Source: Escherichia coli
GTDB lineage: Bacteria; Pseudomonadota; Gammaproteobacteria; Enterobacterales; Enterobacteriaceae
DNA length: 64,000 bases
Reading direction: 5' to 3' (one strand)
Assembly (NCBI RefSeq): GCF_045037415.1
Contig: NZ_CP173438.1
In this document: one piece after another, positions 5,210-27,473 of the stretch
How the letters are laid out: the number at the start of each line of letters is the position of its first letter
How positions within the stretch are numbered: the first letter of the stretch is position 1
The notes under the pieces: model-generated
The model's input: only the letters and a program-made list of their open reading frames with translations
Database searches by the model: none
Told to the model about the DNA's origin: nothing
Position numbers and translations under genes: made by a program

Positions 5210-8200
5210 TTACGCCTTCTCGATGTTTACTAAGAACGCTTTATATTCCGGCGTTTGCGAGTTTGCATCACCGACATTCGGCGTCAGAGTGTTAGCGATA
5301 TAACCTTTACGCGCGACACCTTCAAAGCCCCAGTGGATTGGAATACCCACCGTTTCAACCTGCTGACCGTTTACATTCAGCGGTTTCAGACGGCGCGTTA
5401 CCACAGCCACCGCGCGGATAAAGCCACGCTTGCTGGAGACAGTGACACGATCGCCATTGGCAATGCCTTTCGCCGCCGCCAGCGTTTCGCTGATTTCCAC
5501 AAACTGTTCCGGCTGAGCAATTGCGTTGAGCAATGCGTGCTTGGTCCAGGTGTGGAAGTGCTCCGTCAGACGATAGGTCGTACCCACATACGGGAACTGC
5601 TCTTTTTTACCCATCCGCAGCGCGTCTTGTTCATACAGACGAACAACCGGGTTAGACACCACGTTCGGATGCAACGGGTTAGTGCCCAGCGGCGTTTCAA
5701 TTGGCTCGTAGTGTTCCGGGAACGGACCTTCCGCCATTTTGTTGATGGCAAACAGGCGTCCCATCCCTTCCGGTTGCATGATAAACGGCCCGGTTGGCGT
5801 ACCCGGCGCGGCATTGCCGAAGTCCGGAATATCGTTACCCGTCCACTTGCTACCGTTCCACTGGATCAGCATCCGTTTCGGATCCCACGGTTTACCGTTG
5901 ATATCCGCCGAAGCACGGTTGTAGAGTACGCGACGGTTGAGCGGCCACGCCCAGGCCCATCCCAGCGTATTCCCCAGACCGGACGGGTCGGAGTTATCGC
6001 GGTTAGCCATCTGGTTGCCCTGCTCGGTCCAGCTACCGGTGTAGATCCAGCAAGAAGATGCGGTTGTACCGTCATCACGCAGATGTGCAAAGCTACTCAG
6101 CAACTGACCTTTCTTCGCAATCAGCACGCCATTAGCGTCATAGAGATCTTCCAGCGCATAGCCGTTATTCTCTTTCGCCACTTCATCAGACTGCGGTTCG
6201 TGCGGCTGCTTGTAGTTCCAGCTCATCTTCATCAGCGGTTCTACGCCTTTACCACCTTCGGCCTGGTACAGCTCGCGCAGATGATGGTAGATACCCGCCA
6301 GAATTTCGCCGTCGTTACGTGCTTCGCCCGGCGCGTCCTGACCTTTCCAGTGCCACTGCAACCAGCGACCGGAGTTAGCGATAGAACCATCTTCTTCAGC
6401 AAAGCAGGTCGAAGGCAGACGGAATACTTCAGTCTGAATAGATGCCGGATCGACATCGTTCGACTCGCCGTGGTTCTGCCAGAAGGTAGAGGTTTCAGTC
6501 ACCAGCGGATCGATAACCACCATGTACTTCAGCTTGCTCAGGCAGCTCACCACTTTGTTTTTGTCCGGGAAGGACGCAACCGGGTTAAAGCCCTGGCAGA
6601 AATAACCGGTGACTTTACCTTCATCCATCATGTTGAAATACTTGATGACGTCGTAGGTCTGGTCCCACTTCGGCAGCCAGTCGTAGCCCCAGTTGTTCTC
6701 TTTCTGCGCGGCATCGCCGTAGAAAGATTTCATCAGGCTAACGAAAAACTTCGGATAGTTGCTCCAGTAGTTCACCTGATCAGCCAGCGTCGCTTTCGGC
6801 GTGTTCGCTTCCAGATACGACTGCAAATCAACCTGTTTTTCTGACGGCAGCGTCAGATAACCTGGCAGGCTGGTAGAGAGCAGGCCTAAGTCAGTCAGGC
6901 CCTGAATGTTGGAGTGACCACGCAATGCGTTCACGCCGCCACCGGCCATACCCATGTTACCGAGCAGCAACTGGATCATCGCCATCGTACGGATGTTCTG
7001 CGCACCCACGGTGTGCTGCGTCCAGCCCAGCGCGTACAGGAAGGTGGTTGTGCGATCCGGTGCGCTGGTGGAGGCCAGCACTTCACACACTTTCAGGAAG
7101 TCGGCTTTTGGCGTACCGCAAATGTTTTCTACTACGTCCGGCGTGTAGCGGGAAACGTGCGCTTTCAGCAGATTCCATACACAGCGCGGATGAGTCAGCG
7201 TGTCATCGCGTTTCGCATAGCCGTTTTCATCGAACTGATAGTTCCAGGACGACTTATCGTATTGACGTTTTTCAGCGTCGTAGCCGCTGAACAGACCGTC
7301 TTCGAAAGCAAAATCATCACGCACCAGCAGGCTGGCGTTGGTGTAATGCTTAACGTATTCGGCGTTGATTTTGTTGTTTTCGATCAGGTAGCGCAAAACG
7401 CCAGACAGGAACGTAATGTCCGTACCGGAACGAATAGGTGCGTAAATATCCGCCACAGAAGCGGTACGCGTAAAACGGGGATCGACAACGATCAAGGTTG
7501 CATCGTTGTTGTTTTTCGCTTCCATCGCCCAGCGGAAACCGACGGGATGCGCTTCAGCAGCGTTACCGCCCATCACCATTACGACGTTAGCGTTTTTGAT
7601 ATCCACCCAGTGGTTGGTCATCGCACCGCGACCAAATGTTGGAGCAAGACTTGCTACCGTTGGTCCGTGTCAGACGCGCGCCTGGTTGTCTACCGCCAGC
7701 ATCCCGAGGGAGCGGGCAAATTTTTGAGTCAGCATCCCGGTTTCGTTGCTGGCACCGGAAGCACACAGCATACCGGTAGAAAGCCAACGGTTTACCGTTA
7801 CGCCCTGCTCGTTCTTTTCAATAAAGTTAGCGTCACGGTCGGCTTTCATCAGCTTCGCAATACGGGAGAATGCTTCTTCCCAGCTAATGCGCTGCCATTT
7901 GTCAGAACCTGGCGCACGATATTCCGGGTAGCGCAGACGGTTTTCGCTGTTGACATAATCCAGCAAACCGGCCCCTTTCGGGCACAGCGCACCACGACTT
8001 ACCGGATGATCCGGGTCACCTTCAATGTGATAAATCGCTTCTCTGGCGTTTTTCGCGCCATCACCCAGGCTATACATCAATAGCCCGCAACCTACGGAAC
8101 AGTATGTGCAGGTGTTACGGATCTCTTTCGCGCGTAATAATTTGTAGTTTCGCGCCTGAGCCAGTGCTTGCTTCGGGGCAAAGCCCAATGCTGCTACTGT

Positions 8201-8257
8201 TGTTCCCGCCATACCGCCCGCGCAGATTTTAAAAAATTGTCTGCGACTGACGTCCAT
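5210..8257 (-). CDS. fdnG: Formate dehydrogenase-N alpha subunit, selenoprotein (1015 aa) with in-frame UGA at 7670..7672 read as selenocysteine; Tat signal peptide
   Basis: Two in-frame ORFs 7670..8257 (ends ...VDNQARV then TGA) and 5210..7621; intervening codons translate HGPTVASLAPTFGRGA with no other stop; N-terminus MDVSRRQFFK is a twin-arginine motif. Confidence 0.93.
7625..7669 (-). promoter_or_regulatory. SECIS-like region immediately 3' of the fdnG UGA codon
   Basis: mRNA segment CACGGACCAACGGUAGCAAGUCUUGCUCCAACAUUUGGUCGC contains complementary GACCAA/UUGGUC and GCAAG/CUUGC arms; bacterial SECIS elements sit directly downstream of the UGA. Confidence 0.55.
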
Positions 8258-8488: not shown

Positions 8489-9370
8489 ATGACACGTCAA
8501 AAAGCAACGCTCATAGGGCTAATAGCGATCGTCCTGTGGAGCACGATGGTAGGATTGATTCGCGGTGTCAGTGAGGGACTCGGCCCGGTCGGCGGCGCAG
8601 CTGCTATCTATTCATTAAGCGGGCTGCTGTTAATCTTCACGGTTGGATTTCCGCGTATTCGGCAGATCCCGAAAGGCTATTTACTCGCCGGGAGTCTGTT
8701 ATTCGTCAGCTATGAAATCTGTCTGGCGCTTTCCTTAGGGTATGCGGCGACCCGTCATCAGGCGATTGAAGTGGGGATGGTGAACTATCTATGGCCCAGC
8801 CTGACAATTCTCTTTGCCATTCTGTTTAATGGTCAGAAAACCAACTGGCTGATTGTACCAGGATTATTATTAGCCCTGGTCGGCGTCTGCTGGGTGTTAG
8901 GCGGTGACAATGGGTTACATTATGATGAAATTATCAATAATATCACCACCAGCCCATTGAGTTATTTCCTGGCGTTCATTGGGGCGTTTATCTGGGCAGT
9001 CTACTGCACAGTAACGAATAAATACGCACGCGGATTTAACGGAATTACCGTTTTTGTCCTGCTAACGGGAGCAAGTCTGTGGGTTTACTATTTTCTTACG
9101 CCACAACCAGAAATGGTATTTAGCACGCCCGTCATGATTAAACTCATCTCTGCGGCATTTACCTTAGGATTTGCTTATGCTGCATGGAATGTCGGTATAT
9201 TACATGGCAACGTCACCATAATGGCGGTAGGTTCGTATTTTACGCCCGTCCTTTCCTCAGCGCTTGCAGCCGTGCTGCTCAGCGCCCCGCTGTCGTTCTC
9301 GTTCTGGCAAGGCGCGCTAATGGTCTGCGGCGGTTCCCTGCTCTGCTGGCTGGCGACACGTCGTGGCTAA
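8489..9370 (+). CDS. yddG: Aromatic amino acid exporter, DMT family (293 aa)
   Basis: ORF 8489..9370; MTRQKATLIGLIAIVLWSTMVGL recognised as YddG; polytopic membrane protein. Confidence 0.88.
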   Translation: MTRQKATLIGLIAIVLWSTMVGLIRGVSEGLGPVGGAAAIYSLSGLLLIFTVGFPRIRQIPKGYLLAGSLLFVSYEICLALSLGYAATRHQAIEVGMVNYLWPSLTILFAILFNGQKTNWLIVPGLLLALVGVCWVLGGDNGLHYDEIINNITTSPLSYFLAFIGAFIWAVYCTVTNKYARGFNGITVFVLLTGASLWVYYFLTPQPEMVFSTPVMIKLISAAFTLGFAYAAWNVGILHGNVTIMAVGSYFTPVLSSALAAVLLSAPLSFSFWQGALMVCGGSLLCWLATRRG

Positions 9371-9642
9371 AATAATTGTCGGGTCTACGGCCCGGCAGTT
9401 AATCAGATAAATTCTGACAATATTAAAAAATAAATTTCAAATACCAGAAAGTCATTTTAGTTACATTTAGTAACACATATCTGTCTGTTTAATCCACATT
9501 CTGCCCCCGCAGTTACGCTTTCTTATCTATTCTTCTAATCAGCACTTCACCTGATTCATCCTTAATTCTAATAACTGGCTATTGCGCCTTACCTCCTGTT
9601 TTGTCTTTTTTTCATTACCAATGTGTGCATGTGAGGAACAAT

Positions 9643-11031
9643 ATGGCACTGCAAAATGAGAAAAATAGTCGTTATCTTTTACGCGACTGGAAACCAGAAA
9701 ATCCGGCCTTCTGGGAAAATAAAGGAAAGCATATTGCACGAAGAAACCTCTGGATATCAGTCAGTTGTCTACTTCTTGCCTTCTGTGTCTGGATGCTATT
9801 TAGCGCAGTTACTGTTAATCTCAATAAAATCGGTTTTAATTTTACTACCGATCAACTCTTTTTATTAACCGCATTACCCTCCATTTCTGGCGCATTATTG
9901 CGTGTCCCCTACTCCTTTATGGTGCCTATATTCGGTGGACGCCGATGGACGGTTTTTAGTACTGCAATCCTGATTATTCCTTGCGTCTGGCTCGGAATTG
10001 CCGTGCAGAATCCGAATACTCCTTTTGGGATATTTATCGTTATCGCTTTGCTATGCGGTTTTGCAGGTGCGAACTTTGCTTCGAGCATGGGCAATATCAG
10101 TTTCTTCTTTCCAAAAGCCAAACAAGGGAGCGCTCTTGGGATTAATGGCGGATTAGGAAACTTAGGTGTAAGTGTAATGCAGCTGGTTGCACCGCTGGTC
10201 ATTTTTGTCCCCGTATTTGCCTTTCTCGGCGTCAATGGCGTACCGCAGGCCGACGGTTCGGTGATGTCGCTGGCGAATGCCGCATGGATTTGGGTGCCAT
10301 TACTGGCGATTGCCACGATCGCCGCCTGGTCAGGGATGAATGATATCGCCAGTTCACGCGCCTCAATTGCCGACCAGCTCCCTGTCTTACAACGCCTGCA
10401 TCTCTGGCTGCTGAGCCTGCTTTACCTTGCCACCTTCGGTTCGTTTATCGGTTTTTCTGCGGGTTTTGCCATGCTGGCAAAAACCCAGTTCCCGGATGTG
10501 AATATTCTGCGCCTGGCGTTCTTTGGCCCATTTATCGGTGCCATCGCGCGATCGGTTGGTGGTGCTATTTCCGATAAATTCGGCGGCGTGCGGGTGACGT
10601 TGATCAACTTCATTTTTATGGCGATTTTCAGCGCCCTGCTGTTCCTTACCTTACCGGGCACAGGCTCCGGTAATTTCATCGCATTTTACGCCGTATTTAT
10701 GGGGCTGTTTCTGACCGCGGGTCTGGGAAGTGGTTCTACTTTCCAGATGATCGCCGTCATCTTTCGCCAGATAACAATTTATCGGGTGAAGATGAAAGGC
10801 GGTAGTGATGAGCAAGCTCAAAGAGAAGCCGTCACCGAAACGGCAGCCGCTCTGGGCTTTATCTCAGCCATTGGCGCAGTGGGCGGCTTTTTTATTCCGC
10901 AGGCGTTTGGCATGTCGCTCAATATGACCGGCTCTCCGGTGGGCGCGATGAAAGTGTTTTTAATCTTCTACATCGTTTGTGTGCTACTGACCTGGCTGGT
11001 TTATGGTCGGCGGAAGTTCAGCCAAAAATAA
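9643..11031 (+). CDS. narU: Nitrate/nitrite transporter, MFS (462 aa)
   Basis: ORF 9601..11031 trimmed to ATG 9643 (MALQNEKNSRYLLRDW); multi-TM MFS protein. Confidence 0.88.
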   Translation: MALQNEKNSRYLLRDWKPENPAFWENKGKHIARRNLWISVSCLLLAFCVWMLFSAVTVNLNKIGFNFTTDQLFLLTALPSISGALLRVPYSFMVPIFGGRRWTVFSTAILIIPCVWLGIAVQNPNTPFGIFIVIALLCGFAGANFASSMGNISFFFPKAKQGSALGINGGLGNLGVSVMQLVAPLVIFVPVFAFLGVNGVPQADGSVMSLANAAWIWVPLLAIATIAAWSGMNDIASSRASIADQLPVLQRLHLWLLSLLYLATFGSFIGFSAGFAMLAKTQFPDVNILRLAFFGPFIGAIARSVGGAISDKFGGVRVTLINFIFMAIFSALLFLTLPGTGSGNFIAFYAVFMGLFLTAGLGSGSTFQMIAVIFRQITIYRVKMKGGSDEQAQREAVTETAAALGFISAIGAVGGFFIPQAFGMSLNMTGSPVGAMKVFLIFYIVCVLLTWLVYGRRKFSQK

Positions 11032-25370: not shown

Positions 25371-27473
25371 ATGAAGATTTTTTCCGTCCGACAGACCGTT
25401 TTGCCCGCACTGCTTGTCCTTTCCCCCGTTGTTTTTGCCGCTGATGAACAGACCATGATTGTCAGTGCCGCACCGCAGGTGGTTTCAGAACTGGATACCC
25501 CAGCAGCCGTGAGCGTGGTGGATGGCGAGGAGATGCGCCTGGCAACACCGCGCATTAACTTGTCTGAATCACTGACCGGAGTGCCTGGTTTACAGGTACA
25601 AAACCGACAGAACTATGCGCAAGATTTACAGCTGTCGATTCGCGGATTTGGCTCCCGCTCCACTTACGGAATTCGCGGTATTCGCCTGTATGTGGACGGT
25701 ATTCCCGCTACCATGCCCGACGGACAAGGGCAGACATCTAACATCGATTTAAGCAGTGTGCAAAATGTGGAAGTGCTGCGTGGCCCCTTCTCTGCTCTGT
25801 ATGGCAACGCGTCTGGCGGTGTAATGAATGTCACCACCCAGACCGGACAACAGCCACCAACCATTGAAGCCAGTAGTTACTACGGCAGTTTTGGCAGCTG
25901 GCGCTATGGGCTGAAAGCAACGGGCGCAACGGGCGACGGCACACAACCCGGCGATGTCGATTACACCGTCGCAACCACACGTTTTACGACCCACGGCTAT
26001 CGTGACCATAGTGGCGCACAGAAAAATTTAGCCAATGCCAAACTGGGCGTACGCATTGATGACGCCAGCAAATTAAGCCTGATTTTCAATAGTGTGGATA
26101 TCAAAGCAGATGACCCAGGTGGGCTAACCGAAGCAGAATGGAAGGCGAATCCACAACAAGCGCCTCGTGCAGAACAGTACGACATGCGAAAAACCATCAA
26201 GCAAACTCAGGCTGGGTTGCGCTATGAGCGTAGCCTGAGCGCACAAGATGATATGAGTGTGATGATGTATGCCGGAGAGCGAGAAACGACCCAGTACCAG
26301 TCAATCCCCATGGCCCCGCAACTTAACCCGTCACATGCGGGCGGCGTGATTACCCTGCAACGCCATTACCAGGGGATAGACAGCCGCTGGACACACCGTG
26401 GTGAACTGGGCGTTCCAGTCACGTTCACAACCGGCCTGAACTACGAAAACATGAGTGAAAACCGCAAGGGTTACAATAACTTCCGCCTGAATCGCGGCGT
26501 GCCGGAATACGGGCAAAAAGGTGAGTTGCGCCGCGACGAACGCAATTTGATGTGGAACGTCGATCCCTATTTACAAACCCAGTGGCAACTGACCGACAAA
26601 CTTTCGCTGGATGCTGGCGTGCGCTACAGCTCCGTGTGGTTTGATTCCAACGATCATTACGTTACTCCGGGTAACGGCGATGACAGCGGTGATGCCAGTT
26701 ATCACAAATGGCTACCTGCCGGATCGTTAAAATATGCAATGACCGATGCCTGGAATGTCTATCTGGCAGCCGGGCGCGGTTTTGAAACGCCGACGATTAA
26801 TGAACTGTCTTATCGCGCTGATGGACAAAGCGGTATGAACTTTGGTTTAAAACCCTCCACCAACGATACAATTGAGATCGGCAGTAAAACGCGTATTGGT
26901 GATGGACTGCTTAGTCTCGCATTGTTCCAGACCGACACCGATGATGAAATTGTTGTCGATAGCAGTAGCGGTGGGCGTACGACTTACAAAAATGCCGGAA
27001 AGACCCGTCGTCAAGGCGCTGAACTGGCATGGGATCAACGTTTCGCGGGAGATTTTCGCGTAAAAGCGTCCTGGACCTGGCTTGATGCGACCTATCGCAG
27101 CAATGTCTGCAATGAACAGGATTGTAACGGTAACCGGATGCCAGGGATCGCCCGTAATATGGGCTTTGCGTCGATAGGTTATATACCGGAAGATGGTTGG
27201 TATGCAGGCACGGAAGCGCGTTATATGGGCGATATTATGGCAGATGATGAAAATACGGCCAAAGCGCCTTCTTATACACTCGTCGGCTTATTCACCGGGT
27301 ATAAATACAATTACCACAATTTAACCGTGGATTTATTTGGTCGTGTCGATAATTTATTCGATAAAGAATACGTTGGTTCTGTCATTGTCAATGAGTCAAA
27401 CGGGCGATATTACGAACCTGCGCCCGGACGAAATTATGGTGTCGGCATAAATATTGCGTGGCGATTTGAGTAA
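25371..27473 (+). CDS. yncD: TonB-dependent outer membrane receptor (700 aa)
   Basis: ORF 25371..27473; signal peptide, TonB-box-like N-terminus, C-terminal ...INIAWRFE ending in aromatic residue. Confidence 0.88.
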   Translation: MKIFSVRQTVLPALLVLSPVVFAADEQTMIVSAAPQVVSELDTPAAVSVVDGEEMRLATPRINLSESLTGVPGLQVQNRQNYAQDLQLSIRGFGSRSTYGIRGIRLYVDGIPATMPDGQGQTSNIDLSSVQNVEVLRGPFSALYGNASGGVMNVTTQTGQQPPTIEASSYYGSFGSWRYGLKATGATGDGTQPGDVDYTVATTRFTTHGYRDHSGAQKNLANAKLGVRIDDASKLSLIFNSVDIKADDPGGLTEAEWKANPQQAPRAEQYDMRKTIKQTQAGLRYERSLSAQDDMSVMMYAGERETTQYQSIPMAPQLNPSHAGGVITLQRHYQGIDSRWTHRGELGVPVTFTTGLNYENMSENRKGYNNFRLNRGVPEYGQKGELRRDERNLMWNVDPYLQTQWQLTDKLSLDAGVRYSSVWFDSNDHYVTPGNGDDSGDASYHKWLPAGSLKYAMTDAWNVYLAAGRGFETPTINELSYRADGQSGMNFGLKPSTNDTIEIGSKTRIGDGLLSLALFQTDTDDEIVVDSSSGGRTTYKNAGKTRRQGAELAWDQRFAGDFRVKASWTWLDATYRSNVCNEQDCNGNRMPGIARNMGFASIGYIPEDGWYAGTEARYMGDIMADDENTAKAPSYTLVGLFTGYKYNYHNLTVDLFGRVDNLFDKEYVGSVIVNESNGRYYEPAPGRNYGVGINIAWRFE

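Follow-up and report, generated by a model that had tools for sequence, protein, structure and literature searches.

In the stretch of Escherichia coli DNA analysed here (the window: 64,000 nucleotides of contig NZ_CP173438.1), the genes yddG and narU stand next to each other with a short AT-rich interval between them. This raises the question of what the interval represents: is it one allele of a locus that is occupied by other genes in other strains, does it hold all that is needed to control narU, and does the short palindrome within it have a function?

The interval between yddG and narU

Both flanking genes lie on the plus strand: yddG (8489–9370) encodes an aromatic amino acid efflux transporter of the DMT type (293 aa) and reaches 472.8 bits with NF008676, the YddG equivalog model of NCBIfam (cut-off 194), whilst narU (9643–11031), the first gene of narUZYWV, encodes a nitrate/nitrite transporter (462 aa) and reaches 1020.8 bits with the NarU model NF011608 (cut-off 836). 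Both genes have the same identities in the RefSeq annotation of SK1144, a near-identical strain. With yddG ending at 9370 and narU starting at 9643, the coordinates bear out the initial annotation, according to which the two genes directly adjoin with 272 bp and no gene between them: the gap (9371–9642; 35% GC) contains no credible open reading frame in the ORF list, neither a porin nor a leucine-rich-repeat gene is present in it, and an Rfam scan of 9250–9760 at E ≤ 1 returned zero matches. In the ORF list, fdnG (5210–8257, minus strand) is split into one ORF of 803 aa and another of 195 aa, which is consistent with its in-frame TGA selenocysteine codon; in SK1144 it is a single gene of 3,048 nt (RefSeq).

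Just 3' of the yddG stop codon lies a GC-rich hairpin (9373–9401, plus strand) with a 13-bp stem and a 3-nt loop, for which RNAfold gives −18.2 kcal/mol. No U-tract follows it on the plus strand, so that it does not have the form of an intrinsic (rho-independent) terminator, and a consensus terminator scan returned 0 terminators, leaving the hairpin uncalled. Comparable CCGGG...CCCGG hairpins are also found downstream of yddG in Citrobacter and Enterobacter. At the other end of the gap, the Shine-Dalgarno sequence GAGG of narU (9633–9636, plus strand) is situated 6 nt 5' of the ATG and is kept in the cross-genus alignment described below. We consider it very probable that the allele in the window is the island-free form of a known variable locus and includes a complete narU control region, and, with the same good confidence, that the 272 bp contain the yddG hairpin, a 12-bp allele junction, this control region and the 5' leader of narU with its Shine-Dalgarno sequence.

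An island-free allele of a variable locus

The initial annotation had placed yddJ, yddK and yddL at this site in K-12 and suggested a strain-specific island difference, which could have been overturned by the same adjacency in K-12. The annotation of NC_000913.3 does list yddL, yddK and yddJ between yddG and narU, and the latter two genes are 2,227 bp apart in this strain. In pairwise BLAST, homology between the window and K-12 is broken between 9454 and 9457, where K-12 exhibits an extra segment of 1,956 bp with 33.7% GC, as opposed to 49–50% GC in the flanking genes. The uninterrupted yddG-narU arrangement was found in 1,130 of 5,426 complete E. coli genomes (about 21%) and island DNA in 4,291 of them (about 79%): together with the alignment break, these counts support the island difference. 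An 86-mer spanning the junction occurs in full in 1,118 genomes, among them the phylogroup B2 strains CFT073, Nissle 1917 and SaT040. The window thus carries the ordinary allele of the B2 lineage.

The junction of this allele (9448–9459), identified by BLAST and by a junction comparison that took in K-12, O157, strain 405, SMS-3-5 and HH97, consists of 12 bp, AAAGTCATTTTA, that are specific to the island-free state; at this point other strains carry an island of 2–4.2 kb. According to the junction comparison, a clean deletion would not generate AAAGTCATTTTA from either end of the island, and the longest matches of AAAGTCATTTTA inside four island variants equalled the shuffle expectation. The 12 bp are tied to the empty allele regardless of the type of flank: HH97 (locus L088, 742–1074) is a mosaic that combines K-12-type SNPs in both flanks with the same island-free junction. 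Alleles of the HH97 type are very rare: only a few of the 5,426 genomes have one, and their identities are graded.

Where the island is present, its content varies. The O157:H7 version spans about 4.2 kb and contains an intact gene for a 366-aa OmpC-family porin, leucine-rich-repeat genes and espR1, annotated as a T3SS effector gene. The island of SMS-3-5 is colinear with this version (95.4% identical) and likewise carries the porin and leucine-rich-repeat (EspR1-like) genes, whilst the islands of strain 405 and K-12 are versions with internal deletions. In K-12, yddL covers codons 1–92 of the porin gene, and both yddK and yddJ can be aligned to O157 EspR1 at 86–89% protein identity. A tblastn search with the O157 porin and EspR1 gave matches in K-12, O157 and strain 405, and no match in the near-identical island-free locus L002. 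Judged from these alignments, K-12 appears to carry a derivative of the island with internal deletions; for comparison, an insertion of yddK into the island has been proposed (PMC3079680). The island DNA is of atypical composition relative to its surroundings, with parts of the O157 version ranging from 28% to 44% GC between flanks of 49–51%. No integrase is annotated at the compared island loci, and a search for flanking direct or inverted repeats of a mobile element gave nothing convincing, only short GTTA/TTA runs.

Further variation was observed at individual loci. In EC23HZZ201 (locus L005, 3231–4250), IS1A has taken the place of the yddG 3' end and of almost the entire island, and the last 64 bp of island DNA are intact, as is the OmpR-type site described below. 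The right island end in K-12 and O157 (K-12 locus L001, 5989–6010) reads GGTTAGCTTG-TTAGTTACAT-TTAGTAACAC, which amounts to three tandem 10-mers. In SMS-3-5 (locus L089, about 5990–6005), 12 bp are missing at this end (GGTTA|CATTT), as if through slippage between GTTA repeats; since the missing base pairs belong to the tandem 10-mers, the number of OmpR-like half-sites varies between alleles.

Deletion or insertion of the island

The island-free state probably arose through a deletion in the B2 lineage. The alternative is that the empty site is ancestral in E. coli and that the porin/leucine-rich-repeat island was inserted later into non-B2 lineages, which we regard as possible but doubtful. 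The low GC content of the island would agree with such an insertion, as would the 12 allele-specific junction base pairs that a simple deletion does not explain. A scan for YddG in species-representative genomes yielded 80 loci, and here the gene order speaks for deletion: an OmpC-family porin directly follows yddG in Citrobacter, in Salmonella arizonae and diarizonae, in Enterobacter and in Lelliottia, thus in at least four other genera, and these syntenic porins share 68–75% identity with that of O157. For most loci of Citrobacter and several of Enterobacter, the full order is yddG, porin, SmvA-family pump, TetR regulator and narU. However, homology between the yddG-porin intergenic regions of E. 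coli and Citrobacter is limited to about 40 nt at the ribosome-binding site and start codon of the porin, and a search for remnants of smvA, smvR or GFA in the E. coli alleles produced nothing above noise; both results fit an insertion. The E. coli porin is also lower in GC (44% versus 49–52% in the syntenic porins) and only about 70% identical to them, and could therefore have been re-acquired, which counts against the deletion polarity.

SMS-3-5, a member of phylogroup F, the sister group of B2, provides a second line of evidence. Its island lies between B2-like flanks right up to both junctions, and its narU upstream region is 98.4% identical to that of the window, compared to 93–95% for K-12; an island imported through recombination would have been expected to bring the flanks of its donor. 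Furthermore, island copies from different strains have diverged by 4–8%, at least as much as their flanks, which indicates that the island is old. Thus, porin synteny in other genera, the B2-like flanks of SMS-3-5 and the divergence of the island copies together favour deletion. HH97 does resemble a K-12-flank allele that never received the island, as an insertion would predict, and the rarity of such alleles weighs against this.

Two divergent Escherichia genomes, labelled E. coli E69 (locus L008, 2951–3267) and SCPM-O-B-8794 (locus L009, 9847–10190), also have yddG next to narU, and this shared adjacency would likewise fit an ancestral empty site. In both, however, the last yddG codons are altered (TRRG* to TRHR* or TRQR*) and the left half of the spacer is unrelated to that of the window: the adjacency stems from a different event, an independent deletion. 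E. albertii and E. fergusonii were absent among the yddG loci from the species-representative genomes and so did not serve as outgroups. In Escherichia sp. MOD1-EC7003 (locus L006, 9877–18876), the 9 kb downstream of yddG contain no detectable narU, and yddG is followed by a 281-aa minus-strand ORF taken as nhoA-like and then by yddB-like ORFs.

An OmpR-type site upstream of narU

The palindrome of the initial annotation, GTTAC-ATTTA-GTAAC, does exist, but it is located at 9460–9474 and not at 9456–9470, 4 bp away. By itself it is no more than chance would provide: there are 4 perfect inverted repeats with 5-nt arms in the 272 bp, equal to the expectation of 3.6 ± 2.3 from dinucleotide-preserving shuffles, and a second exact GTTAC-N5-GTAAC, which we treat as chance, is found at 26661–26675 inside the coding region of a 700-aa ORF (25371–27473). 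These numbers would suit a functionless feature of AT-rich DNA. Such a reading is nevertheless extremely improbable, effectively refuted by conservation and by chromatin immunoprecipitation: the palindrome corresponds to one of only two blocks that are invariant in 18 narU upstream regions, and the site coincides with an OmpR ChIP-exo peak.

The conservation became apparent from an alignment of these 18 regions, which come from seven named genera (Escherichia, Citrobacter, Enterobacter, Kluyvera, Pseudocitrobacter, Raoultella and Pseudenterobacter) and the two divergent Escherichia genomes. Besides the Shine-Dalgarno GAGG, only two invariant blocks remain in about 215 bp of otherwise scrambled DNA. 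The first, TTACA-N4-GTAACA (9461–9475), reads TTAGTTACATTTAGTAACAC with its flanks and belongs to an OmpR-type binding site (9457–9479, plus strand) that contains the palindrome and stays about 180 bp away from the narU ATG in all 18 regions. The sequence TTAGTTACAT at 9457–9466 is a perfect match, and the sole one in the 64 kb, to KWWGTTACAT, the motif derived from OmpR ChIP-exo (Seo et al. 2017, PMC5438342). The site can be divided into two tandem 10-bp half-sites, GTTACATTTA and GTAACACATA; a repeat finder detected the direct 10-mers TTTAGTTACA and TTTAGTAACA. Compared with the tandem repeat GTTACATTTTGTTACAT, it agrees at 14 of 17 positions and is the only match within 3 mismatches in the 64 kb.

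The window is identical to K-12 over 9457–9483. When we apply an offset of 1,976 bp between NC_000913.2 and NC_000913.3, a value assumed from the known IS1 and IS5 insertions rather than computed, the 20-bp site falls at 1542248–1542267 in K-12. This is inside the OmpR ChIP-exo peak P10 (1542224–1542283) of a study that described the narUZYWV promoter of K-12 as "extensively occupied by OmpR", and in which knock-out of ompR changed narU by log2 −5.56, a 47-fold drop, and narZYWV by about −3 to −3.9 (PMC5438342). Based on the motif match, the ChIP-exo peak and the identity to K-12, 9457–9479 is best read as a set of OmpR tandem half-sites and not as a functional palindrome. The published occupancy and expression data, together with the cross-genus conservation, also support the gap as the narU promoter region, as first proposed. 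Phosphorylated OmpR would be expected to bind the tandem half-sites and, by analogy to K-12 under osmotic stress, the bound protein would activate narUZYWV from a promoter further downstream.

We also considered whether another OmpR-family regulator (RstA, CpxR) or a dimeric factor reading the palindrome might be the main user of the site. The sequence TACATTTAGTAACA (9462–9475) differs by one mismatch from the published RstA box TACATNTNGTTACA and is the sole such match in the 64 kb, with 0.17 expected. In the case of CpxR, the minus strand in other genera reads GTTAC-N5-GTAAA, resembling the CpxR consensus, GTAAA-N5-GTAAA. Against these similarities stand OmpR occupancy and the loss of narU expression, both published for the identical K-12 sequence, whilst a literature search gave no narU data for either RstA or CpxR; a main role for any of these factors is hence quite unlikely. 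The OmpR and RstA readings are, however, mutually compatible: both regulators are listed for ompF, and the csgD and ompF promoters use both. Other candidates, namely NsrR, FNR, NarL, ArcA, DeoR and GntR, were rejected as their spacing or half-sites do not fit; ArcA, for instance, requires a spacing of 11 bp and here it is 10 bp.

The OmpR-type site is kept in all alleles, including those of B2, K-12, O157, SMS-3-5, the IS1 variant and the divergent Escherichia genomes, and in every comparison homology begins, and the allele boundaries fall, 0–3 bp upstream of it.

A candidate narU promoter

The second conserved block, TTTCTTATCTATTCTTC (9519–9535, plus strand, from the cross-genus alignment), contains the invariant sequence TTATCTAT(T/C)CTT at about 9523–9534 in the 18 regions and exhibits a −10-like box, CTATTCT (9527–9533), about 60 bp downstream of the OmpR-type site. 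We infer that this box would serve as the −10 element of the narU promoter, with a sigma-S-like C at −13, which would place the centre of the OmpR site near −70. As far as its sequence can indicate, CTATTCT fits a promoter of the sigma-S type (CTAYRCT, with C at −13). A scan with the generic sigma-70 consensus revealed no plus-strand promoter and one promoter-like match on the minus strand, which is at chance level. narZ is RpoS-dependent, and narU is listed as Crl-activated in the paper on the regulon of Crl, a cofactor of sigma-S.

Possible consequences for narU regulation

Both the polymorphism of the locus and its control by OmpR have already been published, and our finding is an ordinary strain difference to which we add only two small points: the OmpR site is conserved across genera, and the rearrangement boundaries lie right beside it. 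The former bears on the suggestion that OmpR regulation of narUZYWV may be unique to K-12 (PMC5438342). Conservation of the site across genera, as read from the alignment, argues against K-12-only activation and would correct this suggestion: if true, OmpR control of narU is an ancient enterobacterial trait and not a peculiarity of K-12. The island-free allele itself cleanly marks strains of the B2 type, for example CFT073 and Nissle 1917; otherwise, this is a routine presence/absence polymorphism at an already described locus and carries little weight alone.

The structure of the locus also matters for the interpretation of narU-upstream mutations. The K-12 mutation T1538580C, selected with ciprofloxacin, raises narU expression about 10-fold (PMC11417348). 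It is located 263 bp upstream of the K-12 narU ATG (position 5924 of locus L001), inside the island and within a GTAAC pentamer, TTAATATGTAACC, and the window lacks an equivalent of this −263 element. Upstream of narU, about 70% of clinical genomes were reported as "mutated" (PMC11417348), a figure that probably reflects the natural island polymorphism: scoring such mutations against the K-12 reference misreads a natural indel as a mutation.

Loss of the island may also have rewired the control of narUZYWV in B2, such that NarZ expression could differ from that in K-12-like strains, but we advance this only tentatively and think it rather unlikely. Three changes would follow from such a loss. 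Only about 85 bp now separate the end of the co-directional yddG from the OmpR site, and the −263 element of K-12 is missing. Moreover, as no U-tract follows the yddG hairpin, transcription could conceivably continue from yddG into narU in island-free strains; we note such read-through, like the missing −263 element, as a possible, speculative lead.

Comparison with known systems

Among the closest known systems is the narUZYWV promoter of K-12, which shares with the window the site, the motif and its spacing from the narU ATG. Further upstream, the sequences are unrelated: the site is preceded by the yddG 3' flank in the window and by island DNA in K-12. With regard to the island, the corresponding system is O-island 62 of O157:H7 EDL933, the counterpart of yddLKJ in K-12, whose low GC content has been noted (Okeke et al. 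2011, PMC3079680). O-island 62 and yddLKJ occupy the same yddG-narU site and have the same low-GC, strain-variable content, whereas the window carries the empty allele of this site, which is not described in that work (PMC3079680).

The yddG-ompD-smvA-smvR region of Salmonella and Citrobacter resembles the window in that narU lies downstream of yddG in the same orientation and is preceded by an OmpR-type site and a −10-like box. In these genera, a porin, a 126-aa ORF, an SmvA-family MFS pump and a TetR regulator are placed between the two genes, none of which is found in the window.

Finally, the site appears to resemble the OmpR sites of ompF (F1–F3), ompC (C1–C3) and csgD. The window contains only one strong 20-bp unit, as the adjacent segment 9480–9499 matches poorly and is not conserved across genera. 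The unit itself would correspond to those of the known promoters: all are built as 20 bp from two direct 10-bp half-sites of the GTTACA type, and in the window, as in ompF, ompC and csgD, the OmpR unit would be situated upstream of a weak promoter.
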